Shown here piece by piece: positions 3,587-19,509 of a DNA stretch of 20,000 bases. Under the pieces are notes generated by a model that did not search any database, was not told the origin of the DNA, and worked only from the letters and a program-made list of their open reading frames with translations. Position numbers and translations under genes: made by a program. The first letter of the stretch is position 1. Each line of letters begins with the position of its first letter. The stretch is from Stramenopiles sp. TOSAG23-3 (lineage: Eukaryota): NCBI GenBank assembly GCA_900128585.1, contig LT642151.1, positions 48,437 to 68,436 on the forward strand. The letters are read 5' to 3'.

Positions 3587-5464
3587 ATGTGGACAAAACA
3601 ATCGCCGACGAGGAAACGGGGAAGGCGACGGTCCACGAAAACAATTCCAAAGGTGCGGACGGATGCATCAAACGTACTTGGTGAAAGGACATTGAGCTGC
3701 AAAAAAATACCTCGGTCGCCATCGTGTACAACTTCACCAACCATCTCTCCTCCTCCCCTAAAACTGTCCCCTTCCCATTCGGTTAGTACATCGTTCTGGA
3801 CGTCTCCAAGGTTGCAAAACTCGCCGCGTCGACCCGAAGTCAACCATGTAGACGGGGACAATGCGCCGAGCAACAAGTCGCCATTAAAGGCCCGAAGGGT
3901 CGTCTCGGTGAAGAAACTGTTGGCACAAGATCAACCCAACAACCAGCAAGAGCAGGGCAGTGAGCCTGGACAAAAGGCAACTTTGGGCAACGAGAAACGC
4001 AACGAGCAACGCAACGAGAAACGCCGGTCGTCCATTCACCTATTGCAGGCAGGCGCAGACGGCGCCCACAAGGAAGGAAATTCCCATGTTCACGTTCTGA
4101 AGGAGAAATTAATGCATAAAATGGCCACCCTGGCGATGGATGACGACGAAGCAGTTCACACTGCAAATGTAGAATTGAGCATGCTAGACGTGCACGACCT
4201 GATCTCTACGCTAGCAGAGTTTGAGTCTATGCTGTCCATGGGGAACGTTCATGTGGACGACTTCGACGATGTCAGCACAAAAGAAATTATTGGAGAGTAC
4301 TCCCCTAGTACTAAATCAAACAAGACGTTCGCGATGCGGAAATGGGGAAAAGCGTTAAAGAGCATTTCAAACAAAATACACCCCGACAAGAGAAAAGACC
4401 ACGTTCAGTTTTTCAAATCGCTAAAAGTCCTCAAGGTGCCGGCCAGCACCATCAAAACTGCCCTAGGCCTTTTGCAAGATTTTGGAAAATGGCATTTAGA
4501 CATTCTAGAACTTGGCGAAATATGCGGTAAAGAGACGTTTGCTTTCTTGGCACATTTGGTCTGTCAGAGCCTCCCGTTGGATCTAGACTCCATCAATGTA
4601 GACCCAGAGGTCCTGCACAACTACATGGAGGCGATTGCAAGGCATTACCGTGAAGACAACCCGTACCACAATGCGCTGCATGGCGCAGACGTTGGGCATG
4701 CCGTGTTTCATTTTTTGACAGTCGAACATTGGGACGAATTCATGAAGCCCCTCGAGGTGTTTAGCTGTGTTATGGCCGGGTTCTTGCACGACTGTGGTCA
4801 CCCAGGCGTGAACAACGCTTACCTCGTCAACACATCTCACATGCTGGCACTGCGGTACCATGATCGCTCGCCATTAGAAAACATGCATGCGGCGATAGCA
4901 ATGGAGACTTTGAAAGAGGATGGGTGCAATTTTATGGCCACCATGACGCGGGGGAGCAGGAAAACGTTTCGTAGTATTCTAATTGAAACCATCCTTGGGA
5001 CCGACAACGCGCTGCACTTCGACCACATCATGAGACTGCAAGATAACTTGATGAAAGGCCATCAGAAAGACAACCCCTTTACAGTGGGCGACGAGGGCAG
5101 TCGAATGTTTATTCTGCAGCTGCTCCTGCATTTGTGCGATTTGTCCAACCCTGCGAAACCATTGTCAACTTATTTGCAGTGGTGCGACCTCGTAATGGCA
5201 GAATTTCACATGCTTGGAGACAAAGAGAAAGAAGCCGGGTTGCCCGTGGGACATATTTTTAAAAGGGAGACCCCTTTGCACGATGTGCAAATTGGGTTTG
5301 TAAAGTATTTGGTGAATCCGTTCTACTTAGAGATGAACAAAATTGGCGGCGTTGACCTGAAAACACAACTTTCGTGTATAGACATTAACCTTAAGTACTT
5401 TCAGGACATCAAGAAGCTAAAGGAGGAAGAGGAAAAGAAGGAGAACGACGCAAAGAAGGAGTAA
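3587..5464 (+). CDS. Class I 3',5'-cyclic nucleotide phosphodiesterase (PDEase_I, HD fold)
   Basis: 625-aa ORF with NPYHNALHGADV, the HD signature LHDCGHPGVNN, YHDRSPLENMH, ILGTD, HLCDLSNP, W..LVMAEF..GDKEK and the invariant Gln in QIGF. N-terminal ~250 aa is S/P/K-rich and probably disordered. True start uncertain (see finding at 3538). Confidence 0.96.
   Translation: MWTKQSPTRKRGRRRSTKTIPKVRTDASNVLGERTLSCKKIPRSPSCTTSPTISPPPLKLSPSHSVSTSFWTSPRLQNSPRRPEVNHVDGDNAPSNKSPLKARRVVSVKKLLAQDQPNNQQEQGSEPGQKATLGNEKRNEQRNEKRRSSIHLLQAGADGAHKEGNSHVHVLKEKLMHKMATLAMDDDEAVHTANVELSMLDVHDLISTLAEFESMLSMGNVHVDDFDDVSTKEIIGEYSPSTKSNKTFAMRKWGKALKSISNKIHPDKRKDHVQFFKSLKVLKVPASTIKTALGLLQDFGKWHLDILELGEICGKETFAFLAHLVCQSLPLDLDSINVDPEVLHNYMEAIARHYREDNPYHNALHGADVGHAVFHFLTVEHWDEFMKPLEVFSCVMAGFLHDCGHPGVNNAYLVNTSHMLALRYHDRSPLENMHAAIAMETLKEDGCNFMATMTRGSRKTFRSILIETILGTDNALHFDHIMRLQDNLMKGHQKDNPFTVGDEGSRMFILQLLLHLCDLSNPAKPLSTYLQWCDLVMAEFHMLGDKEKEAGLPVGHIFKRETPLHDVQIGFVKYLVNPFYLEMNKIGGVDLKTQLSCIDINLKYFQDIKKLKEEEEKKENDAKKE
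3989..4024 (+). repeat. Coding 12-nt tandem repeat x3 (NEKR-NEQR-NEKR) within the PDE
   Basis: aacgagaaacgc aacgagcaacgc aacgagaaacgc seen directly. Confidence 0.85.
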
Positions 5465-5525
5465 GAGAAGGATAATATGCATACACGAAAGCACAAACTA
5501 ACATAGTGTGCACAAACAGTATCAT

Positions 5526-5761
5526 AGCCACAATTTTCTTGTTTTAATGTAAAACAGCCAATTTTTTGTTTTTAAACGTAACCTCTAATTGGACAAAAGC
5601 TGAGTAGATTCATTTTCGCGGTATTATAAAATGAGGAAAAGCTAAATTTTAATTTCTGTGTCTAAATAAAAAAAAAACAAGAAAATTGGCTGTTAGGATT
5701 AGGGTATATGAGGAAGCTAAATTTAATTATACTTAAATAACAGCCAATTATTTTTGTTTTT
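5526..5761. repeat. Cluster of direct and inverted copies of an AACAGCCAATTTT(C)TTGT motif in the convergent spacer
   Basis: Copies at 5526 (degenerate), 5553-5572 (+), 5677-5695 (reverse complement) and 5738-5761 (+); also a TGAGGAA(AA)GCTAAATTT direct repeat at ~5632 and ~5709. Confidence 0.75.
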
Positions 5762-5840: not shown

Positions 5841-8800
5841 TTATTCAATCATCGGCATGTACGGCTGGGCATACAATGCAGCGTCCGCTTCGTCTTTCAG
5901 CCCTTTCAACCACTCCTTTCGCTCAAAATGATCCTGTATAATGCCCTCATCGTCGCTTTCTGTGCCTGGAAGCGCTTCCACACCAAGCCCTGAAACTGCT
6001 TCCCCCGCCGCCAATGCCTCTTCTCGGATGCAATGGTTGTACACTTTTTCGTACGTGACTTGATCTTTCTGCACCTTATTCACCAATTTTCCGACGAGTT
6101 CTGCACTTTTCTGTGGGTGAAGCAAGTCATGAAGGCCAGGAGAAGACAACTTAACCGCAGACTGGTACATGTTTTCGCTTTGTATGGATTTCAATGCCGA
6201 TGCATCGATGTGCCCACGGCCATCTCTGTCGAAAACCTGAACAAAAAGGCGCACCGACCGTGCAATGAGATTTGGAAGCTCAATGTGTGCACACTCGCGG
6301 ACGCCCTCCCACGGGCTTTCAATAGTTTCGATCCCTTTTCGAGTACGCTTCAACTTGCATGCATCGTACAGCGTAAACATAGCGGCGAACAAACGTTTTT
6401 GCAAAGCATTCGCAAGCGATTCAAAGCGATTGATAAGGTTTCTGATTCCAAGCGCTATGTTATCTTTATGCACAGCATCTTTTTTTCGTAAGACGACGAC
6501 CTTTTCGAAATCGACCAACAAGCAGCGGATATTAGGCTTAAAATCGTCTGCATCATATGCTATTAACAAGCTCGACCCAAAAAAGTCCATGTTGTTATGT
6601 TTTGATTGTAGTGATTCAAGCCGCGTCTTTAACGTTGAAACGATTTCTCTCAGCAGATCTATGCGAACGATTGTTTTGCTGGAACCTAGCGTCAGGAAAT
6701 GCTCAAAAGAGCAGTCAGTCTCGTCGTCTGCGCCAATATCAACAAACTGCTCAAAGTCAGGGTTCCACATGCGCATGCCTACCAGTTCGTATGCATCACC
6801 CAGTCCTAATTTTTTTCCTTGCTTGTCAGAGCCTATCTTTACGTCCATTATACAAGGGCTCGAGAAACCTTTTGAAATATTTTCTATACTAACGTACTTG
6901 ACAGCGTGATGATAGCAAATGCCACCAAATCTTGGAATAATCCTTCTAATAGCAGTGTTTGTTGCCGCCATGTGCTCGTAAAACGCTTCCTCCACCTCGG
7001 TTGTGTGCTTGCCGATGAATCGATCGGTCTTGTTCGGCCAAACAAAGCGCACACTCCCGTCCACCGTCTTTTCCTTACCCCCAATGCGATCAATGTACTC
7101 CCGGCTGACGTTATCATTTCGCGATACCTTCCCGCTTCCTTGCTTCTGTCTAACCAGGTACTTTTCGTTCAAGCCGCATAAAAATACTCGAAGTTCGTCC
7201 TGGCTGATTTCGTCCATGGAAGCGGTGCACTTTACGGGCAATATGGTCAAAGTTGACCAGTACCATTCGGGCTCCAGAAGAACCCTAGCCGTTGCACAGA
7301 GTTCAAGCTTTTCCTTAACAATGGGATCGGTTACGTAATGGATTATGTTCACCTTCTTTGTGGGCGCATACTTGTGCAAATCCAACTTTTCAACACGCAT
7401 GATGGTGTACAAATTGTTCAGTGCCTGATTCAAATCGTACTCTGGGCTTGCTCTTGGGTATTGTTTCACGTCCGTTCGAAGCTTGACGTGCCCCCATCCC
7501 GCGCACAGACCGGCACAATAAATGACCATTTCGTCGTAGGTAATTTTGATTTCTATCGCATCTAGTGCTTCCTCCAGCGTTTGGCCCTCTGGCAGTACGT
7601 AGGAATGTGACGCGAGTTTCTTTGATTCCAAGGCCAGCAGAGTCTGCTTCAAACAAAGGAAAAGATCACGGTCCTGCTCCCGCAGCTGAAGAATAGGCGT
7701 TAAGGTTGCAATTTCAGACAAAGCATAAGGCTCGTCCAGCTTGTCAATTATTGATTGCAAGGGTACAGGCGCATCTTTTGAAAACCCAGAAATATCATAA
7801 AATGCGTCCAAAGTAGCAGAAATTTCTTTCAGCATTTTCATCGCTTCCTTCACGTTCAAAACTACTGAATTCTGGGCTGCCACGACACCGCTGCAAAACC
7901 CACGAACTTCTTCGAACGTGACAAAGCCATCGTTGTCGGTATCGATAGCCATTAACGTTGCCCAGAATGCGCGGGGTTTTAGCAGAGGTTGTAGTGGGGC
8001 GCATTTGCGAATTATGTCTCGAATATTGTCTTTGTGCAAACCATGCATCAAATCAACTTTTGTTATTTTACGCTCTGCCCCGTGGCCCATGGCCTCGAAC
8101 AATTCCATCAGTATGGACTTTAAATCGTTGTGCACGTCTTTTTGAGCTTCCCTGTTCTCTAAATCAAAATCAGATTCTTCCAGGGCGCTCATAGCCAAAT
8201 CGCTCTTGACGGCAATGTCTTTGCTCGCGTCCATTGAGTACATGCCTGTACAGAACATACGCAACTCCTGAAAATCTACGCTTCCGTCATGGTTTGTGTC
8301 CATTGCATTAAAAGTTTCCTTGTAAGTCCGGGGGTGCAAAAGGGGTTTGAGAGGGGGGCACTCATTTATCATTTCGCTCACGGCGGGTTTACCTAGCGAC
8401 ATCATGATGTCTTTTTTTGAGATTTTCCCTTGCCCATGCTTGTCAATTGTGTCGAACAACTCCTGCAGCGAATTTTCCAATTCCCGAACGTCGCTGTAAA
8501 CATTTGCAAAGTGCTTCTTGCGCTCCTGGGTCCGCTTAACAGCAATCGCCCGCTCTTGACGACCGCGGGCTATGTGCTGGATTTTGGCCGCCGCGTTCTT
8601 TTGTTTTACTAGCATTTGTCGGTCTGCCTTGCCACGTTGGAGTTTTTGGATCTTCGTCGCAGCAAGGGCTCGCTGCTCTTCTTCAAGTGCTTCCGTGTCG
8701 TCCTGATCAGTTTCCATAATGTCGTTGATGTGGCTCAAAACATCGTCGTCTCCAGGTTTAATTTCCGAGGCATCTGTAATTGAAACTTGCACACGGCGAA

Positions 8801-11800
8801 GCGATTTTTCTCTTCGCTTTTCAAGTAGCAGTTCCCGCCTCGTCATTTGACTAACGGGCTTGTTGCGCTTTGCAACCTTTTCCTCCATCTCAAGCCGGTC
8901 GCTGTCCTTGAGCGCTTTCAAAGCTTGTTGGTGGGCCATTTCGGCCTCGATCCTCATTTCCTCCTCTCGCTCCTTCAGTTTTGCCACCTTTGCTTCCTCA
9001 ATACGCCGCTCCTCTTCTAAAGCCTTGTCCCGAGCTTCCTGTATCTGCCGTTCTTCCTCTTCTTTTTCGGCCAATAACTTTTCTGCAGCCATTTTTGCAT
9101 CGTGCTCCTCTTTCCTACGATTTTCTTCAAATTCACGCTGCGCGCGAGCCTCGTCATCAGCGACTTCTTTGGCTTCCTTAACCTTTAACTGAGCCCGTCG
9201 CTTCGCAATTTCCGCTTCCTGTGCTTCAAGCTTTGCAGCGTGTGCTTCTTCATCCGCTAGTTTTTCCATGGCGCGTGCTTCCTCCTCTTCTTTGTGGTAC
9301 AGGTCCAGCGCATTCTCTGCGTCTCTCTCCGCCTTCTCCGCGTTCTTCAACGACTCGTGAGCACGCTGCCTCGACAACCGGGCTTCCCGCTCCTCTTTCT
9401 CTAAAATTGCTCGCGCGTACTCACTAGTGTCACCGCGCCTTTCCATGTCCTCCCGGGCACGGGTGGCCTCTTCTTCCTCCGCAGCGGCTTCTTTGAGCGC
9501 CACCTCAGCTTCCCGGCGTGCTATTCCTGCAAACCGAGCTTTTTCTTGGGCTATCTTTTTTGCCCTGTCGGCTTCGATTCTCTCCTTAAGGGCAAGGGCG
9601 GCATCTTTTTCTGCAAGGGCAATGGCAGCCTCAGCTTCCTTCTGTTCTTTCAGGGCCTCCGCGGTGGCTTCATCTAGTTCATCGTTGCCTTCTCCGAACG
9701 ATCCAGTGGGGGCCGCCATTCCTATAGACGCCCATTTTTCACGAAAGTGTTCGTCCGATGCCGTAACGGCTTCTAGGACCCAGTCGCAGAGGGGGGCAAA
9801 TGCGCAGTATTTTTCATCTTCCACCAATGTCTCGGGAGAAAAACGAGGGTGGTGGGTCACACGCTGCAACCGATGAAGGGTTTCCTCGGTGACGCTGGTA
9901 GCGTTAAACTTTCGTAAGCGATCACGAAATTCGGGCTCATTCACAATACGTTGCGCCACCAACCACGTAGGGTTTTCTCCGACAAGCATGCACACCGACC
10001 CCAATATTCGCATTATCAACGGCGGGGGCTTTGGCCCATCCGCCGTGCACAGGGCAGCGATGGCCCGCTCGTCGAGTTGATCGAACGTCGCGCTTTTCAC
10101 GGGAACCGCCCGGCCAGGGACGCCAATATCTGAGCTTGGAGTCTTTACCATTGCCCGAAGTCGCCTTGCCTGCTCCGCTTGCTGCCGTTGCTTTGCTCTC
10201 ATCAGCCATGGCTGAGGCCCGGTGGACTTTTCGGGAGACGGGACGGGAATGGACGGCGTGCTGATTTCTTTCTGAGGGGCCTTCGGCGATTTTTTCTTGA
10301 GAATTTGTACTGCCCCTGGCTTGTCCAATTCCAATTTTAACGTTTTGTCCAGGGACGGGACCGGTGATAACTTCTGTTTTAACGGCGACTTGCCGGTCTT
10401 CTTCTTCTTCTTTGCTGAACCGGCCTGCAACTTCTTCGCGTGTCGTCCCTTTTGCTTTTCCCTCTCTATCCTCTCTTTCTCGATGACCGCAAGCTCTTGG
10501 TATTTGATGTACCCTGATGAGCGGTGGTCAAGCTCTTGAAGCAGCACGTTTCGCTCGTTTTCGGACCCTGAGAACCCTACTGCCACGAGCGCGTCAGAAA
10601 AGTCGTCCCTACTGACAACACCGCGCTTTTCACCGTCCCGTTTCATGCACTCGGCCAGCAGTCCCGTGATTTTGGAGTCTACAATTTTGCCCAGCTCTTT
10701 GAACCCAGCCTCTGCCTCCAACGCTTCCCGGCTCTTCACCGCCCCGCTTCGGACGGCGGCGTTGACGGCGACACGGGCACGCTGGGCGTCGAGCGTGTCG
10801 GGCTTTTCGAACCCACCCCCAGTGCGCTTGACGGAGGTGTCGTTTTTTTTCTTTTTTGGTGCTCCAACGTACGTGCCATCGTCCCCTTCGCTATTTAAAT
10901 CTTGCCGGGGCCTCATCTCGTACTCGTTGCCGTTCCACGGCGGCCGCTCCCTCAAAACGTCCTTTTTCTTTTTTCTCCTTGAACGCTTCTTGCGCTGGGT
11001 GCCGTTCGAAAAAGTACTATTTTCTTTCAGCGTTGGCAACGGGCCGGACGACGGGAGGACAATACTGCGCTCTGCCAATTCTCCCGGCGATATGGACGTG
11101 CTCGGCGGGGGGCTCCCGCCGACTTTAGGGCTGTTGCTTCCCGAGCTGCTCGTGGGCGAAAATTGGCGGCGGCTGTTGTTCGGGTTTTCAATCTCTTCTT
11201 TCCACCCCATGTTCTGCGCGACGTTTGGGGGCACCAGCCACTTCGGAACGCTTTGCTTTTCATCTTTCTTCTTTCCCCAAACTTCGTAGTGGGCATCGTC
11301 GCTTTTGATCATCTGTTGCGTGTACGGTGTCTTCATCAGCTTCTTGAGCTTTTTCGTAACCGCCCTCCTCTTCCTCCTCCTGTGCCTGCTTTCCCCAAAA
11401 GACGCAGTGGACATTCCTGCGGAGCTGGCGATACTGGATAAACTATCCGGGGCGTCTATCCCCCCCGCGCCCAGGGCGAGCAGGCTGGCCCCTTGGCGAG
11501 CCCTCGCTTTGTTCTGCAATAGGACAGCCCGCTCTTCCAAAAGTTTTGATTTTTCCGTCTCGATGGACGACAGCAAGTGTGCCTTTCGTTCCATCTCTTT
11601 CACCAGGGCGCGGTTCTTCCTTATCTTCTCGCGCTGCCACTCATTAAACGCGTTCACGGCCGCTTGTCGCTTGGCTTCCTTCTCGGCCAAGTCCTGCTTC
11701 GACGTGTCCGGCTTCTTCCCTTTTTTTTTCTGCAGCACTTGCTTCTCCTTGTTCCATACCTTCCAGCGCTCTTCTGCGTCCTTCTTCCGGTTTGCCCGTT

Positions 11801-12071
11801 TCCGGGCCTTCGCGGCCCTCTCCTCCTCGGTCTCCGGGACGGTCGTCATGGACATTGGCAAACGGCCGGTGCTGGACCGTGATATCTTCGATTTCTTCAG
11901 CTTTGCGTTCCATGTCTTTGCCATTTCCTTTGTGACTGTATTGTTCTTGATTTTCTGTTTCAGCGATAGATCTGTCTTTATCTTTCCACGCTTTCTTCGC
12001 GGGACGAGCAGCCGCTCTGCCCACTTGTCGTTTGGCTTTAACGACTTTTCAACTAACCCGAGGTACGCCAT
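5841..12071 (-). CDS. Giant multidomain protein: EF-hands + dynein MTBD-like domain + charged coiled coil + 2 IQ motifs + EF-hand repeats + inositol polyphosphate kinase (IPK) domain
   Basis: Single open frame; first ATG at 12071 gives 2076 aa (the track starts at a TTG, 12110). EF loops DGEKRGVVSRDD and DHRSSGYIKYQE (~10490-10680); MTBD-like segment (~9765-10095); E/K/A/R helix (~8880-9680); IQKLQRG and IQHIARG (~8545-8670); EF loops DKHGQGKISKKD, DTNHDGSVDFQE, DTDNDGFVTFEE; IPK motifs PCIMDVKIG (6831-6857), SSLL (6564-6575), VDF (6507-6515). Confidence 0.9.
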   Translation of the reverse strand: MAYLGLVEKSLKPNDKWAERLLVPRRKRGKIKTDLSLKQKIKNNTVTKEMAKTWNAKLKKSKISRSSTGRLPMSMTTVPETEEERAAKARKRANRKKDAEERWKVWNKEKQVLQKKKGKKPDTSKQDLAEKEAKRQAAVNAFNEWQREKIRKNRALVKEMERKAHLLSSIETEKSKLLEERAVLLQNKARARQGASLLALGAGGIDAPDSLSSIASSAGMSTASFGESRHRRRKRRAVTKKLKKLMKTPYTQQMIKSDDAHYEVWGKKKDEKQSVPKWLVPPNVAQNMGWKEEIENPNNSRRQFSPTSSSGSNSPKVGGSPPPSTSISPGELAERSIVLPSSGPLPTLKENSTFSNGTQRKKRSRRKKKKDVLRERPPWNGNEYEMRPRQDLNSEGDDGTYVGAPKKKKNDTSVKRTGGGFEKPDTLDAQRARVAVNAAVRSGAVKSREALEAEAGFKELGKIVDSKITGLLAECMKRDGEKRGVVSRDDFSDALVAVGFSGSENERNVLLQELDHRSSGYIKYQELAVIEKERIEREKQKGRHAKKLQAGSAKKKKKTGKSPLKQKLSPVPSLDKTLKLELDKPGAVQILKKKSPKAPQKEISTPSIPVPSPEKSTGPQPWLMRAKQRQQAEQARRLRAMVKTPSSDIGVPGRAVPVKSATFDQLDERAIAALCTADGPKPPPLIMRILGSVCMLVGENPTWLVAQRIVNEPEFRDRLRKFNATSVTEETLHRLQRVTHHPRFSPETLVEDEKYCAFAPLCDWVLEAVTASDEHFREKWASIGMAAPTGSFGEGNDELDEATAEALKEQKEAEAAIALAEKDAALALKERIEADRAKKIAQEKARFAGIARREAEVALKEAAAEEEEATRAREDMERRGDTSEYARAILEKEEREARLSRQRAHESLKNAEKAERDAENALDLYHKEEEEARAMEKLADEEAHAAKLEAQEAEIAKRRAQLKVKEAKEVADDEARAQREFEENRRKEEHDAKMAAEKLLAEKEEEERQIQEARDKALEEERRIEEAKVAKLKEREEEMRIEAEMAHQQALKALKDSDRLEMEEKVAKRNKPVSQMTRRELLLEKRREKSLRRVQVSITDASEIKPGDDDVLSHINDIMETDQDDTEALEEEQRALAATKIQKLQRGKADRQMLVKQKNAAAKIQHIARGRQERAIAVKRTQERKKHFANVYSDVRELENSLQELFDTIDKHGQGKISKKDIMMSLGKPAVSEMINECPPLKPLLHPRTYKETFNAMDTNHDGSVDFQELRMFCTGMYSMDASKDIAVKSDLAMSALEESDFDLENREAQKDVHNDLKSILMELFEAMGHGAERKITKVDLMHGLHKDNIRDIIRKCAPLQPLLKPRAFWATLMAIDTDNDGFVTFEEVRGFCSGVVAAQNSVVLNVKEAMKMLKEISATLDAFYDISGFSKDAPVPLQSIIDKLDEPYALSEIATLTPILQLREQDRDLFLCLKQTLLALESKKLASHSYVLPEGQTLEEALDAIEIKITYDEMVIYCAGLCAGWGHVKLRTDVKQYPRASPEYDLNQALNNLYTIMRVEKLDLHKYAPTKKVNIIHYVTDPIVKEKLELCATARVLLEPEWYWSTLTILPVKCTASMDEISQDELRVFLCGLNEKYLVRQKQGSGKVSRNDNVSREYIDRIGGKEKTVDGSVRFVWPNKTDRFIGKHTTEVEEAFYEHMAATNTAIRRIIPRFGGICYHHAVKYVSIENISKGFSSPCIMDVKIGSDKQGKKLGLGDAYELVGMRMWNPDFEQFVDIGADDETDCSFEHFLTLGSSKTIVRIDLLREIVSTLKTRLESLQSKHNNMDFFGSSLLIAYDADDFKPNIRCLLVDFEKVVVLRKKDAVHKDNIALGIRNLINRFESLANALQKRLFAAMFTLYDACKLKRTRKGIETIESPWEGVRECAHIELPNLIARSVRLFVQVFDRDGRGHIDASALKSIQSENMYQSAVKLSSPGLHDLLHPQKSAELVGKLVNKVQKDQVTYEKVYNHCIREEALAAGEAVSGLGVEALPGTESDDEGIIQDHFERKEWLKGLKDEADAALYAQPYMPMIE

Positions 12072-12621
12072 TATTCCTGACCCGATGTACCCACTGCGTG
12101 CGACGCACAATGTCGGAGGAGATAGAATTCAAAGGCAAGAGGGAACAACAAAGACGGGATTGTTCCGGTTTGTACAAAACAATATGGTGTCTATAAAATG
12201 TGTACCTCTTTTTACTAAAATAGTCTTTGGTTGATCAATAATTCTTGTGGGGGAGCATATTTGTAGTCAATATGTTTCAGCGGATAAAATAGTTCTCGTA
12301 CTTCTTCTTCTTCGCTAAAAATTATTATTATTATTATAATAAAAAAAAATAATAAAAAAAGAAAGATGATGATGATGTTGCCATGTTATGTGTAAAGCTT
12401 TATGATGAAATATTTTATAACGGTGGGATTGGATTGTTGTTGGAGGGGGAAGGAAGGAAGGGAAGGAAGGGGGTGATTTGTTTTTGTTTTGGGATTTCAT
12501 TCTTCTCAGATTTCACAGGAAGAATAGTGTGTATAAATTTATGTTAATAAAATAGATAGGGTTAATAATGTATTATAAGTATATTTTCATGTATACTATT
12601 CATTTTATAAATATGGGAATC

Positions 12622-12635
12622 GGGGGGGGGGGGGG
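12622..12635. repeat. Poly-G tract (G14)
   Basis: Fourteen consecutive G in an AT-rich spacer. Confidence 0.9.
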
Positions 12636-12880
12636 TAATAATATTTTCTTTTTCTCTTCTATCGCTCTCTGTCCTTATTCACCTGTAGAATGCACATAAT
12701 TAAACCGATGCTATGCAATGTATATTTGGGTATTTACATAGTATTACATAGAAATATCATGAAATAATATCGAGATAGCAAGCGTACATTTCAAAATACC
12801 CGTCATATCATTGAATGCTATGATGACCTATTTTAAAAATGGGACCAACGGCTTTCCTTTTTTCCTTTCCTTTCCCACAC

Positions 12881-13353: not shown

Positions 13354-13692
13354 ATGAAGTTCACTCTTTTCATTGCGTTAGTATTTGCCTTAGTTGCCGC
13401 CGCCCTCGGTGCAGACGTCCGAACGGAAGAACCAGCAGCAACTGGTGGTGCCACCGGCGGCGCCACTGGTTTTGATGGATCGATCTTGGAACCAACCGAA
13501 CGATCCAAAGAGATCGAGCGTAAACGAGGAGGTAGTACTATCAAGCCAAAGCCCACTTGCAATGGCCAATACGGAAAACCATGCACCCGCAACACCGAGT
13601 GCCCATGCACAAACTTCTGCTACTTCGCCACTGAAACCACTATTGGCCAAGGTAAATGCGAGATGTACGACCGCAAGAAACACAGTGCCTAA
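13354..13692 (+). CDS. Small secreted cysteine-rich prepropeptide (knottin-like)
   Basis: ATG at 13354 (track uses TTG 13345), 112 aa. Clear signal peptide MKFTLFIALVFALVAAALG, A/T/G/E-rich pro-region, basic site ERKR, then six Cys spaced C-x7-C-x5-C-x-C-x3-C-x12-C. GC content steps up at the ATG like the other genes. Confidence 0.85.
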   Translation: MKFTLFIALVFALVAAALGADVRTEEPAATGGATGGATGFDGSILEPTERSKEIERKRGGSTIKPKPTCNGQYGKPCTRNTECPCTNFCYFATETTIGQGKCEMYDRKKHSA

Positions 13693-14495: not shown

Positions 14496-16196
14496 ATGTC
14501 TGGAAATGGCGACTTCGAGGAGGAGTCTTATGGCACCCCCCTTCAAATTATATCCATCGATGAGGAAAATAGCAAATTCAAATTAAACGAGGTAGAACTT
14601 GAGCAGGTCATGGCGCGGGTGCCGAAGGGTATGAAGCTCTCTGTTGTCAGTATTGTAGGCGCTTTCCGCACCGGGAAGTCTTTCTTGCTAGATTTTTTCC
14701 TCAAGTACTTGCGCCTGCCGCAAACGAAGATTGGCCGCGAGGCTTGGAGCAACCTGTTTACCTCAAAATCTTCAAAGTTGGAAGGGAACTCCAACGAGAA
14801 GGTGTCCGAGGGTGACAAGAACAATGACAGCGGGTTTTCGTGGAGGAGTGGCACGGAGCGGAACACCATGGGAATATGGCTTTGGAGCAAACCGTTTGTC
14901 CGCAAGGTGAAAGAGACAGGGGAGTCCGTGGCAGTCCTGTTGGTAGACACCCAAGGAATCTTTGACAGTCGCCTGACCCAGATGATGGCGGCATCCATTT
15001 TTGGGCTAAGCACGCTGCTTTCGTCGTACCAGATATACAACGTGCAGAACAGGCTGCAAGAAGATCACTTGCAGCACTTGGCCCTGTTCACCGAGTACGG
15101 CCGGGTGACGTTGCGGGCCCAAGAGTCAAGCGGGGACAACAACAACAAGGCCAAGAAGGCGGGGACGGACGAGCAACCGTTCCAGGTCTTGCAATTTCTC
15201 GTGCGCGATTTTCAGTTCGAAAGCAAAGACCGGAGCGAGGACAAGATGACCGAGTACTTGCAAAATTTCTTGTCGGTCGAAGACCGGCAACAGAAAGACC
15301 TTCGCGAAATTCGTGAGCACATTCGCGATTCGTTCGAAAAGGTGAGCATTTTTCTCCTCCCTCACCCTGGCTTTGACGTCCCGGACCCAGAGTACGACGG
15401 CGAAGTCAGCAAAATTCGCGACGTGTTTCGAGAGATGCTCGAGCAGTACGTGCCGCTGGTGTTTAACAGGGAACTGCGGCCGAAGACGATCAACGGTAAC
15501 TTTATTACGTCAATGGAGTTCAAACATTTCATTCGCGCCTTCGTTAAGATTTTCGCTGATGGAAACGCGTTCCCGGAGCCGACCACCCTGTTGGCCGCCA
15601 CGGCAGAAGTGAACAACCGGTGTGCCAACGATGCCGCGTACGATAACTACGTGGCCGAGATGGACCAACTCTGCGGCCCTGGAAAGATGCACGTGCCCGA
15701 GCCGAAGTTGCTGTCGCACCACAACATTTGCCTCGACGCAGCGCTCTCAAAGTACAGGTCCAAGGCAACCCTCGGCAGCAGGTCAATGATTAAAAAGTTT
15801 GAGCTTGAGCTGACACAGAAGATAACGAAAAAGAAGAACGAGTACGTGTCCATAAACTCGGACAGAGACCCGTACAAGAATTTAGAATTTTACGTGCTTC
15901 CCGCAATGATATGCGTCTCTGCGTATTTCGTATCCATGGTCGGCGGGTGGGTGTGCTGGACGCCGCAGACCCCAGAGTTCGATTTTGAAATCGCCGACGT
16001 CTGCCAGCGTGGTATCAATCTGGTCAATTTTGTGTACGGTGGAATTTTTTGGTTTTTCATGGTAATGTTTGCTGTTATGGGCCGGCAAGCATGGGACAGG
16101 ATCCAACTCATTCTCCAAGCAAACGGGATGATGGTGCGCGTTGGTGGCGCCGCAACCGAATCGGACCCTGTCGGAACGAAATTGAAGAGCGACTAA
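14496..16196 (+). CDS. ATL: Atlastin-type (GBP family) ER membrane-fusion GTPase
   Basis: 566 aa. P-loop GAFRTGKSFLLD, G2 FSWRSGTERNTMGIWLWS, G3 LLVDTQGIFD, FLVRD (the atlastin RD motif), FLLPHPG, helical middle domain, two C-terminal hydrophobic segments (~15888-15953 and ~16020-16082), C-terminal KLKSD (KxKxx ER retrieval signal). Confidence 0.93.
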   Translation: MSGNGDFEEESYGTPLQIISIDEENSKFKLNEVELEQVMARVPKGMKLSVVSIVGAFRTGKSFLLDFFLKYLRLPQTKIGREAWSNLFTSKSSKLEGNSNEKVSEGDKNNDSGFSWRSGTERNTMGIWLWSKPFVRKVKETGESVAVLLVDTQGIFDSRLTQMMAASIFGLSTLLSSYQIYNVQNRLQEDHLQHLALFTEYGRVTLRAQESSGDNNNKAKKAGTDEQPFQVLQFLVRDFQFESKDRSEDKMTEYLQNFLSVEDRQQKDLREIREHIRDSFEKVSIFLLPHPGFDVPDPEYDGEVSKIRDVFREMLEQYVPLVFNRELRPKTINGNFITSMEFKHFIRAFVKIFADGNAFPEPTTLLAATAEVNNRCANDAAYDNYVAEMDQLCGPGKMHVPEPKLLSHHNICLDAALSKYRSKATLGSRSMIKKFELELTQKITKKKNEYVSINSDRDPYKNLEFYVLPAMICVSAYFVSMVGGWVCWTPQTPEFDFEIADVCQRGINLVNFVYGGIFWFFMVMFAVMGRQAWDRIQLILQANGMMVRVGGAATESDPVGTKLKSD

Positions 16197-16336: not shown

Positions 16337-17278
16337 TTACTTTTGTGCTACGATATAACGATAAGTGCTTGTTTTTATCACAACATCACCATTTTCATCA
16401 ATCATTCCATGATTTGTGATCGCATCACGCATTGCATTCGCAGCTGTACCAAACACGTCATCGCCATGTTTCCCACCTTCTTGTAATCCAACCAAAGATG
16501 GATTGACTGGAATGAGACAAGTTTTGATTGTATCTTCATTGTCAAATGCACCAAGATTAATATCAATTAATGCTGTTTCATTATGACGTCCAAGAGTTTT
16601 AAAACCAGCATCTGCAAGGGAAGTATTTACAAGATCTGGATCTTTAAGACTTAAAGGATTAATTGGTGGTGGTGGTGGAGCTTCACCCAATACCTTTGTC
16701 ATTGTTTCTCCGAGCAATGGCAATATGTAAAATTCTTCCCATACTGTACCAACCAACAAACCACCATCACGCAAAACGGTATGAATTTCATTCAAGCTAC
16801 CAGGTAAATCTTCTGTAAACATAAGAGCAAATTGAGCAGTCACAAGGTCAACAGGTCGTTGTGTCACTGGACTAAAATCATTAAGGTCCATTACTCCAGT
16901 GGTCACACGATCACCGACACCAGCGTCTGCAATTCTGTCTTCTGCAAGTGTTAACATAGCTTCTGCACCATCTGTTAAAAAAACATTTGCCTCTGGAAAT
17001 CCACGAGCAAGTGTAAGCGCTGGTTCTCCTGGCCCAGATGCAATATCCACTATATGGTTAATAGGTTCTCCACCGGTCAATTGTCGTGTCTCTTTTACAA
17101 TTTCTTCCGTCTTGTTCCAAGCACTTTCTGCTTGATTAAAAAAATTAAGATACAATCTTGCCATATCACCATCAAACGTTGTTGCCATGGCACGTGTACT
17201 TGTACTAGTTAAAATATTATTATTATGACTACTACGTTTCATTGTTGAACGTATAGCTACATTCATTGCATTCATCAT
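16337..17278 (-). CDS. Class I SAM-dependent methyltransferase (UbiE/Methyltransf_11/25-like) with possible mitochondrial presequence
   Basis: 313 aa. Motif I IVDIASGPGEP, acidic residue after strand 2 (LTDGAEAML), GVMD, VDLVTAQFALMF, EIHTVLRDGGLLVGTVW. N-terminal ~30 aa rich in R/S/T/N/M with no acidic residues. Confidence 0.9.
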   Translation of the reverse strand: MMNAMNVAIRSTMKRSSHNNNILTSTSTRAMATTFDGDMARLYLNFFNQAESAWNKTEEIVKETRQLTGGEPINHIVDIASGPGEPALTLARGFPEANVFLTDGAEAMLTLAEDRIADAGVGDRVTTGVMDLNDFSPVTQRPVDLVTAQFALMFTEDLPGSLNEIHTVLRDGGLLVGTVWEEFYILPLLGETMTKVLGEAPPPPPINPLSLKDPDLVNTSLADAGFKTLGRHNETALIDINLGAFDNEDTIKTCLIPVNPSLVGLQEGGKHGDDVFGTAANAMRDAITNHGMIDENGDVVIKTSTYRYIVAQK

Positions 17279-18375: not shown

Positions 18376-19509
18376 ATGAAACGTGCAACGTTTTGCAGTG
18401 TGATGTTAGCCGCGTGCACGGCCGCTGGAGCCGCGGGGCTCAATGAAGTCAGTATTTCCAGCCCCCAGCTGGAGCTGGTTGCCGACTTTGGTTGGGAACA
18501 CCAACCCACAGGAATTGCTGTATCTTCAAGCGGCAGAACCTTTGTAAGCTTCCCTCGCTGGTTTACCAACTTTACTGGCCCGTCGGTCGCCGAAGTGAAG
18601 GACGGCCTCCTGTTTCCGTACCCAAACAATGATTTGAACTCGTGGACCGCTGGCGAGGACGGTTCGTCAAAGTTTGTCTGCGTCCAGAGTGTATTTATTG
18701 ACCATTTGGACCAAATGTGGATTCTCGACCCGGGAAACGCGTACTTGGGCACCGCTATTGTTGACGGCCTCCTACCCAACATCACAAAGGATGCACCGAA
18801 GCTCATGCGGGTAGACTTAAAGTCTGATAAAATTGTCCAAACTATCCACTTCGACGAAACCGCAGCGCCGGTCCACTCCTACCTGAACGACGTGAGAATC
18901 AGCGTGGATGGCAATTTTGCTTTTCTCTCGGATTCGAACATGGGGGGCATCAAAGTGGTCGATTTAAAGGCCGGGACGACCCGCGTTTTGCTCGGAGACC
19001 ACCCATCGACCCACTCGGAACCAAACACGGTCCCAGTCGTGGAAGGGCAGCCCATGTTGCTACCGAACGGATCCCCGGCGGCATTTCAATCCGATGGAAT
19101 TGCAGTGATCGGTGAGGAGCTGTACTACCATGCCGTCACGGCCCGGACACTGTACAAAATCAGCGTTGGTTTGCTCACCGATGCTTCCAAGACCAAGATG
19201 GAAGTCGAAGCTGGTGTTACCAAAGTAGCGGTGTCTGGCATGCCAGACGGAATGGTGACTTGCGGCGACATCAAGTCCGGGTCGCTGTACATGACTGCCG
19301 TGGAAAAGGACGGTGTTGACTACCTATCCAATGATGGGTACAATCGCGTGCTCCCCTTCATTTCCAACGAATTGTTGGAATGGCCGGATAGTCTTTCTTG
19401 CACGTCAACGCACCTGTACATCACTGCGTCGCAGGTCAACACTGCGCCGTTTATCAAAGATGCCCGGCCAAGGCGCAACCCCTACCAACTTTACCGTGTC
19501 GCCTTTTAA
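18376..19509 (+). CDS. Yellow / major royal jelly protein (MRJP) family secreted beta-propeller
   Basis: ATG at 18376 (track uses GTG 18334), 377 aa. Signal peptide MKRATFCSVMLAACTAAGAAG; family motifs PTGIAVSSSGRTFVSFPRW, PYPN, FVCVQSVFID..DQMWILDPG, PKLMRVDL, SYLNDVRI, AFLSDS, DGIA, WPDS. Confidence 0.88.
   Translation: MKRATFCSVMLAACTAAGAAGLNEVSISSPQLELVADFGWEHQPTGIAVSSSGRTFVSFPRWFTNFTGPSVAEVKDGLLFPYPNNDLNSWTAGEDGSSKFVCVQSVFIDHLDQMWILDPGNAYLGTAIVDGLLPNITKDAPKLMRVDLKSDKIVQTIHFDETAAPVHSYLNDVRISVDGNFAFLSDSNMGGIKVVDLKAGTTRVLLGDHPSTHSEPNTVPVVEGQPMLLPNGSPAAFQSDGIAVIGEELYYHAVTARTLYKISVGLLTDASKTKMEVEAGVTKVAVSGMPDGMVTCGDIKSGSLYMTAVEKDGVDYLSNDGYNRVLPFISNELLEWPDSLSCTSTHLYITASQVNTAPFIKDARPRRNPYQLYRVAF

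Follow-up and report, generated by a model that had tools for sequence, protein, structure and literature searches.

A 20,000-nucleotide stretch of contig LT642151.1 from Stramenopiles sp. TOSAG23-3 (positions 48,437 to 68,436 of the forward strand; hereafter the window) contains an open reading frame (ORF) for a 2076-aa protein in which EF-hands, a single module resembling the microtubule-binding domain (MTBD) of dynein, IQ motifs, further EF-hand units and an inositol polyphosphate kinase (IPK) domain are joined in one chain. This architecture is real and conserved. On the sequence evidence, we somewhat favour the reading that the protein is a single multidomain enzyme, consisting of an IPK-superfamily kinase within a long cytoskeletal scaffold that would be docked on microtubules and controlled by Ca2+. 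What appears new, judged by the literature searched, is the combination of IPK, EF-hands and a dynein MTBD in one protein; cytoskeleton-tethered, Ca2+-regulated IPK enzymes as such are known. The features of the ORF, from the N-terminus to the C-terminus and in window coordinates, are as follows.

5841..12071, minus strand: whole ORF, 2076 aa, represented by an identical protein (P0003) and four other orthologue clusters.
10722..12071, minus strand: residues 1-450, basic and partly low-complexity (net charge +54, pI 10.5), with the conserved short blocks KW..LL.PRRKR and RPPWNGNEYEMRPR.
10482..10721, minus strand: residues 451-530, first EF-hand pair (PF13833 at residues 483-527, E 7.4e-11).
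10212..10481, minus strand: residues 531-620, basic linker rich in K, P and S (net charge +16).
10146..10211, minus strand: residues 621-642, conserved basic helix before the MTBD-like module (W..RA.QRQ.AEQ.RR.RA), predicted as a helix by AlphaFold2 (AF2).
9702..10100, minus strand: residues 658-790, dynein MTBD-like module of six short helices and a short C-terminal helix, without flap or stalk (phmmer, PF12777).
9174..9683, minus strand: residues 797-966, two long, highly conserved helices broken at RGDT, 879-882 (AF2 pLDDT ~90).
8877..9173, minus strand: residues 967-1065, poorly conserved E/K/R-rich extension of the second helix (D+E 34%, K+R 23%).
8619..8651, minus strand: IQ motif 1, IQKLQRGKADR, residues 1141-1151 (pattern match; Pfam IQ below threshold).
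8550..8582, minus strand: IQ motif 2, IQHIARGRQER, residues 1164-1174 (pattern match).
8238..8486, minus strand: EF-hand-pair unit 1, residues 1196-1278, with the canonical loop DTNHDGSVDFQE at 1258 (PF13499).
7881..8132, minus strand: EF-hand-pair unit 2, residues 1314-1397, with the canonical loop DTDNDGFVTFEE at 1377 (Pfam and pattern).
7170..7436, minus strand: degenerate EF-pair-like unit, residues 1546-1634, directly before the kinase (hidden Markov model (HMM) of the unit, iE 4.6e-9).
6402..7109, minus strand: IPK catalytic domain, residues 1655-1890 (PF03770, E 7e-15).
6831-6857, minus strand: PCIMDVKIG, residue 1739, the PxxxDxKxG motif.
6564-6575, minus strand: SSLL, residue 1833, the C-lobe motif.
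6507-6515, minus strand: VDF, residue 1853, the (I/V)DF motif.
6030..6236, minus strand: weak EF-pair-like unit, residues 1946-2014, after the kinase (iE 0.1; PF13405 E 0.11).

A protein homology search returned one identical protein and three orthologues of 2112, 2272 and 2298 aa, whose identities of 54, 46 and 46% extend over 98-99% of the region used as query. They had the same precomputed Pfam content, and the only further match was a dynein. Altogether the architecture is common to five orthologue clusters, with identities of 46-55% and lengths of 2076-2299 aa; the fifth has a 2274-aa member and also holds a fragment (P0160, 632 aa). A cluster look-up places full-length copies on numerous distinct contigs, 7-18 kb in length. 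An independent contig of 7450 nt (L001) carries a single 2299-aa ORF that matches query residues 5-2060. As names the clusters carry only 'Ca2+-binding EF-hand superfamily protein' or else a gene number from EukProt. The protein is a member of a real, conserved family that has been annotated only generically. An earlier reading of the DNA letters and ORF translations (the sequence-only reading) knew of no described protein with this architecture, which agrees with the literature searched: among the papers listed, none was found that joins an inositol polyphosphate kinase with dynein, an MTBD or an EF-hand (supplementary files were outside the search), and in the available portion of an oomycete review the EF-hands were on PLC, not on an IPK.

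Invariant columns, counted over four aligned orthologues, were most frequent in the MTBD-like module (68%), followed by the helices of residues 797-966 (59%) and the basic helix 621-642 (55%). EF units 1 and 2 reached 48-49%, the IQ segment 45%, the IPK domain 39% and the N-terminus (1-450) 33%. Lower values were found in the linkers (5-22%; 10% for 531-620) and in residues 967-1065 (16%). The MTBD-like module is under stronger constraint than the kinase. This would agree with a partner that is itself highly conserved, tubulin for instance, but does not prove one.

Sequence comparison shows residues ~658-790 to be genuinely homologous to the MTBD of the dynein heavy chain. In a phmmer search of the PDB, residues 640-800 matched DNAH6 (8j07, E 4.2e-10) and the MTBD of Chlamydomonas dynein-c (2rr7, determined by nuclear magnetic resonance, E 4.9e-9). 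Each of the 31 top rows was an MTBD or heavy chain of dynein, and a non-dynein row did not follow until E 1.7; the homology is therefore considered real. With 8j07 and 2rr7 the module can be aligned from the end of CC1 onwards over H1-H6, and the hydrophobic signature of H2-H6 aligns with DNAH6 over its whole length. Like DNAH6, the module is without the H2-H3 flap, visible as a 14-residue gap against 2rr7. With the same piece alone, PF12777 matched at E 6.5e-5 (22.5 bits, profile positions 142-208 of 344). Unlike a dynein heavy chain, the window protein lacks the AAA+ ring (no Pfam match to AAA_6 to AAA_9 or Dynein_heavy at E<=1 in the whole protein) and the long antiparallel CC1/CC2 stalk, and the module is preceded by a proline-rich linker and followed by a disordered one. 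Since this P/K-rich linker precedes it, a loop (low-confidence in the AF2 model) follows it and AAA domains are absent, the module stands alone. In the available text of PMC6629372, the dynein MTBD touches the microtubule via H1, H3 and H6 and is described as 'permanently primed' for binding. Both the homology to the dynein MTBD and the very high conservation suggest that the module in the window protein binds microtubules as well.

Two further approaches to the module were not relied on. Its net charge was discarded as a test of tubulin binding, as confirmed dynein MTBDs ranged from -8 to +9 (median -1, n=35) and the query value does not discriminate. The ESM Atlas gave no usable match for residues 615-2076; for residues 615-970 it gave only leads with a score of 0.82, among them one haptophyte-dominated cluster (PF12777 in 25% of the members).

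To place the module among its relatives, residues 615-800 were compared by HMMER with 1.84 billion representatives, yielding 342 proteins at E<=1e-3, of which 19 reached E<=1e-10. A Pfam scan covered 75 of the 150 listed relatives (16 of the 19 best and a length-chosen sample of lower-ranked ones). Dynein motor domains were carried by 26 of the 75. Another 30 contained two to five tandem PF12777 stretches, corresponding to the globular part only, and no dynein AAA domain; these tandem proteins include P0010, P0012-P0020, P0022, P0025, P0028, P0040, P0041, P0068 and P0130. In 13 there was one PF12777 stretch, or a match without any stretch passing alone, and nothing else (e.g. P0023, P0024 and P0051); for several, the match extends over the entire stalk profile, and these may be fragments of dyneins. 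P0115, P0119 and P0136 gave nothing interpretable, and P0009 had no family match. Free modules also occurred in other combinations: with a WD40 propeller (P0016), with DUF4062/AAA_16/TPR in a STAND-like NTPase (P0030) and with an EF-hand unit resembling that of the window protein (P0048, 41 bits). P0039, in which Pfam shows IQ only, has three MTBD-like stretches by phmmer and BLASTP, and shares IQ repeats with the window protein. None of the 75 scanned relatives had an IPK domain.

The nearest relatives of the window module were non-dynein proteins (E 1e-18 to 1e-10), the first confirmed dynein appearing at E 1.6e-9. In a FastTree phylogeny of 164 MTBD stretches, the modules of the IPK family formed one clade (support 96) and nothing further was resolved. 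Judged by sequence, the window module is part of a broader group of MTBD proteins outside the dyneins, for which there is no name as yet. P0010, P0017, P0022, P0016, P0030, P0039 and P0048 resemble the window protein in having globular-only PF12777 or MTBD-like stretches without AAA domains, but most non-dynein proteins of this kind hold two to five tandem modules, whereas the window protein holds one. These distributions suggest that the free MTBD is a portable docking domain. No description of free or tandem MTBD modules outside dyneins was found in the literature searched (supplementary files again excepted). If the free modules bind microtubules, they would constitute a new class of microtubule-associated proteins, and would offer a stalk-free minimal MTBD for biophysics.

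The IPK domain named in the sequence-only reading, with its PxxxDxKxG, SSLL and (I/V)DF motifs, was readily recovered. PF03770 scored 55.8 bits against a cut-off of 22.2 and also matched all four aligned orthologues. P...D.K.G, SS[LIV]L and [ILV]DF each occur once per protein, at aligned places, in 5/5 orthologues. Further invariant positions of the kinase region include K1688, E1694, F1697, Y1698, E1699, E1730, N1731 and G1765-M1766-R1767. The best PDB match of the kinase core was Entamoeba histolytica IP6KA (E 1.4e-6; PDB 4o4b, 4o4c, 4o4d and 8omi), which aligned over both lobes, including its DLKIG motif and SSS..IDF; SSLL and VDF of the window protein align to SSSVL and IDF of that enzyme. 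The match to IP3K-A (E 7e-4) covered only residues 65-108 of the 260-aa query piece, in the N-lobe, and that to IPMK (E 1.4e-3) was confined to the N-lobe as well. A member of the IP3 3-kinase subfamily should be closely similar throughout the catalytic domain, with the large helical lobe that binds InsP3 included; similarity of this extent was not seen. The inositol phosphate lobe is very compact, because the D of DxKxG is separated from SSLL by 90 residues, 18 fewer than the 108 in Entamoeba IP6KA. We place the protein, from its sequence, in the IPK superfamily without assigning a subfamily; its core appears nearest to a small enzyme of the IP6K type and not to IP3 3-kinase. Entamoeba IP6KA is a stand-alone enzyme of ~250 aa, and its low identity to the window kinase allows no inference of a shared substrate; nor does the sequence as such indicate one.

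EF-hand-type repeats, also claimed before, were confirmed by the whole-protein Pfam scan (PF13499, E 2e-18) and by the units at 1196-1278, 1314-1397 and 1546-1634. At 1258 and 1377, and at the aligned places in 5/5 orthologues, there are canonical Ca2+ loops that conform to the PROSITE-type pattern by which such loops are judged. An HMM was built from the two clear 84-aa units; the copy at 1546-1634 was not in the training set. The unit at 1946-2014 has a counterpart in P0005 that was found with more confidence (iE 6e-5). Given the EF-pair-like units at 1546-1634 and 1946-2014, the kinase is bracketed by EF-type units.

The consensus used for IQ motifs is IQxxxRGxxxR, which both motifs of the window protein fit exactly, 23 residues apart. 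Among 2000 whole-protein shuffles, one strict match occurred in two and two loose matches in none. The strict form was present in 4/5 orthologues, and PF00612 matched 3/4 aligned orthologues at E<=1 (best E 0.008). The two IQ helices are followed immediately by the four-EF-hand, calmodulin-like block. A predicted complex of the IQ segment (1128-1190) with the EF units (1191-1400) scored 0.00, which is evidence neither for nor against an interaction. The two canonical EF loops and the two IQ-pattern matches, sub-threshold in Pfam, point to a possible Ca2+/calmodulin gating of the kinase.

Between the MTBD-like module and the IQ motifs, the ~270-aa charged helix of the sequence-only reading proved to be a charged helical region indeed (D+E 28-34%, K+R 21-23%), but one made of two helices rather than one, with high conservation over its first ~170 residues. 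In the AF2 model of residues 615-1120 (4-row alignment, mean pLDDT 70) the helices lie at 797-879 and 884-1060, with a break at RGDT (model residues 266-269) and a pLDDT of ~90 over ~804-994. Judging from this model, residues 797-966 probably form an antiparallel hairpin. Neither they nor residues 967-1065 had a Pfam or PDB sequence match (for the hairpin, 0 in the PDB at E<=0.1); among the non-significant Foldseek matches of the model are long helical hairpins. In view of the difference in invariance (59% vs 16%), residues 797-966 are a conserved element, and only 967-1065 are spacer-like.

Upstream of the module, two earlier claims were borne out, namely the basic low-complexity N-terminus and the EF-hand pair behind it (for the values, see the feature lines). 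Residues 1-450 had no Pfam match and 0 PDB sequence matches at E<=0.1. The segments flanking the module are basic (net charge +54, +16 and +5), and the basic helix 621-642 is also present in a more distant fragment, P0011. In three of the five orthologues (P0005, P0006 and P0206) an extra EF-hand-pair unit lies within the N-terminal basic region (residues ~334-421); it is absent from the window protein and from P0004.

With regard to the gene itself, the window is composed of coding blocks (G + C 0.45-0.56) and A+T-rich spacers (~0.3), and its ORFs are long and intron-free. The ORF at 5841..12071 runs for 6231 nt without a stop, from the ATG through 2076 codons to the stop codon, and the orthologues keep the full length, so that the earlier description of a single uninterrupted ORF stands. 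The orthologues start with residues that align to the N-terminus of the window protein, MA...KPx(D/E)KWA(E/Q)xLLxPRRKR; the ATG is therefore taken as the true start. An in-frame TTG 13 codons upstream was rejected as start, since the orthologues begin at ATG with MA...KP.(D/E)KWA..LL.PRRKR.

Part of the window was found in 20 of the 22 listed sequencing runs (13 recorded as RNA; 11 studies). The runs with an organism label were all marine, seawater or aquatic metagenomes, and two were oligo-dT libraries. Contigs from the RNA libraries of four runs (at least 95% identity; such libraries may contain DNA) tiled most of the ORF when it was divided into 30 bins, covering 27 (run X1), 26, 16 and 19 of them, and no joint inside the ORF was among those tabulated. 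Loose contig ends were seen near 10395-10414, 11362-11381 and 9051, and one X3 contig links 10414 to 11364 with 6 foreign letters. Splicing was rejected as explanation; these ends and the X3 joint were read as assembly breaks, because 10395-10414, 11362-11381 and the joint coincide with K/R-rich codon runs (residues 553-557 and 231-237) and the skip is not a multiple of three. Position 9051 lies in the E-rich helix. The contigs of the four runs did not cover 5300-5546 or 12216-12700, from which nothing is concluded, since the ends of transcripts cannot be seen in contigs. In the stretch immediately downstream of the stop codon (5550-5750), RNA contigs of several runs diverge or show small insertions, and at 5623-5730 there is a 106-nt skip with other letters in between. 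This divergence may reflect strain variation or alternative 3' ends.

For the protein as a whole the following mechanism can be envisaged. The MTBD-like module would dock the protein on the microtubule lattice, aided by the basic N-terminal 640 residues, which could interact with the acidic tails of tubulin. The C-terminal half of the protein would be held off the lattice by the helical hairpin, which is conserved, and by the charged helix, which is variable. Ca2+ on the built-in EF units would alter kinase activity. It could do so directly, or by way of the IQ helices, whose partner may be calmodulin or the EF units of the protein itself. Inositol phosphates or pyrophosphates would then be produced locally at microtubules upon a rise in Ca2+. 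More tentatively, and with some doubt on our side, the dynein MTBD may have escaped as a portable module in marine protists and here fix a Ca2+ switch and an IPK on flagellar, cortical or spindle microtubules, giving local, Ca2+-driven inositol (pyro)phosphate signals. The axoneme or basal body, suggested as location in the sequence-only reading, is neither supported nor excluded.

Several observations weigh against a microtubule-docked, Ca2+-controlled kinase. The dynein MTBD-like module of the sequence-only reading was retained on the phmmer match to DNAH6, but its PF12777 score of 22.5 bits is below the cut-off of 24 and went unreported in the whole-protein Pfam scan, and the module has no long antiparallel CC1/CC2 stalk, which in dyneins controls affinity. 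An acidic segment (EDEKY) precedes H6, the AF2 model reaches a pLDDT of only 45-55 in its MTBD part, and Foldseek found no PDB match to the 615-1120 model at E<=0.001 (best 2rr7, E 0.08). The basic clusters RHRRRKRR and KKRSRRKKKK could equally be nuclear localisation signals. A module this divergent, together with such clusters and with free MTBD modules for which neither literature nor a tested function was found, would agree with a Ca2+-regulated IPK scaffold that does not bind microtubules, in which the MTBD-like fold has been re-used and the basic N-terminus targets, for example, the nucleus or membranes. We regard this as rather unlikely, though as the most serious competitor: the module is the most conserved segment of the protein, its H2-H6 signature aligns fully with DNAH6, and its recurrence in tandem arrays and beside WD40 or IQ fits a generic lattice-binding role. 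As for the Ca2+ part, the two IQ motifs claimed earlier remain as exact pattern matches, but PF00612 scored 13.4 bits on the IQ piece (E 0.068; cut-off 20.3), and the orthologue P0004 keeps one loose match only.

The AF2 model of the kinase (residues 1626-2033, 4-row alignment) had a mean pLDDT of 51 and was unusable for a fold search. A structural microtubule-associated protein, whose IPK domain is catalytically dead or merely binds inositol phosphates as a sensor, would account for the very divergent core, for the shortened DxKxG-SSLL stretch and for the lower conservation of the IPK domain compared to the MTBD. However, at an overall identity of only 46-55% the orthologues share, without change, the three signature motifs, the EN of the hinge and the IGK/E..FYE block of the N-lobe, and this is the pattern expected of an active enzyme; a dead kinase seems improbable to us. 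We give very little credence to a gene-model artefact, i.e. neighbouring MAP-like and EF-hand/IPK genes read through in frame or expressed as separate transcripts. The sequence-only reading had proposed RNA data as a check for one transcript, and here the tiling contigs without a tabulated joint are in favour, but the longest contig measured 1428 nt, none spans MTBD to IPK domain or bridges the whole ORF, and one transcript is unproven. Some orthologue gene calls are fragmentary, such as P0160, but its own cluster has the 2274-aa member. Against an artefact are the absence of stops over the full length of the ORF, the same domain order in the five clusters and in the single ORF of L001, and inter-domain linkers that are conserved in length and partly in sequence; a fusion artefact is thus unlikely.

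The layout of a microtubule-docked, Ca2+-controlled IPK enzyme can be compared with two known systems. In calcium-dependent protein kinases (CDPKs) of plants and alveolates, a kinase and a calmodulin-like module of four EF-hands beside a helical junction are present in one chain. The window protein is alike in having a kinase and a calmodulin-like EF module fused, but CDPKs have a protein kinase fold instead of an IPK, another domain order and no cytoskeletal module. The other system is ITPKA (IP3K-A), relative to which the window protein is about four times larger. Both have a C-terminal IPK-superfamily domain and an N-terminal part that targets the cytoskeleton, in the window protein putatively. 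According to the accessible text of the sources, IP3K-A binds F-actin, and microtubules via its N-terminus (PMC5884490, citing Lee et al. 2012), and ITPKA is regulated by Ca2+/calmodulin (PMC10500224), in which the window protein would resemble it. The targeting of ITPKA, however, is by a short linear motif and not by a dynein MTBD fold, built-in EF-hands are absent, and its catalytic match to the window protein is weak and partial (N-lobe residues only).

Soluble inositol phosphates are usually seen as messengers that diffuse freely, the products of small kinases in the cytosol or nucleus. If our reading is true, an IPK fused to microtubule docking and to Ca2+ sensors of its own would be an example from nature of inositol phosphate synthesis confined in space, and would provide a handle on the coupling of Ca2+, inositol phosphates and cilia, basal bodies or spindles. 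As far as the available parts of the articles go, this coupling is so far known mainly from IP3K-A on the neuronal cytoskeleton (PMC5884490) and from zebrafish Ipk1, which shows enrichment at both centrosome and basal body and is required for ciliary beating (PMC5221616).

Six other ORFs were noted in the window. On the minus strand, ORF 1-1866 encodes a TPR protein and runs off the window end, and ORF 16337-17278 encodes a class I methyltransferase. On the plus strand, ORF 13354-13692 (112 aa) has a hydrophobic N-terminus and several cysteines, without a Pfam match, and ORF 18376-19509 encodes a major royal jelly/yellow-family protein (PF03022, E 1.5e-16). ORF 14496-16196 (plus strand, 566 aa) encodes a GBP/atlastin-type GTPase (PF02263, E 7e-61) with hydrophobic C-terminal stretches, and is atlastin-like. 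The neighbouring, intron-free ORF 3587-5464 (plus strand, 625 aa) has a basic low-complexity N-terminus, behind which lies a class I 3',5'-cyclic nucleotide phosphodiesterase domain (PF00233, E 1e-66).

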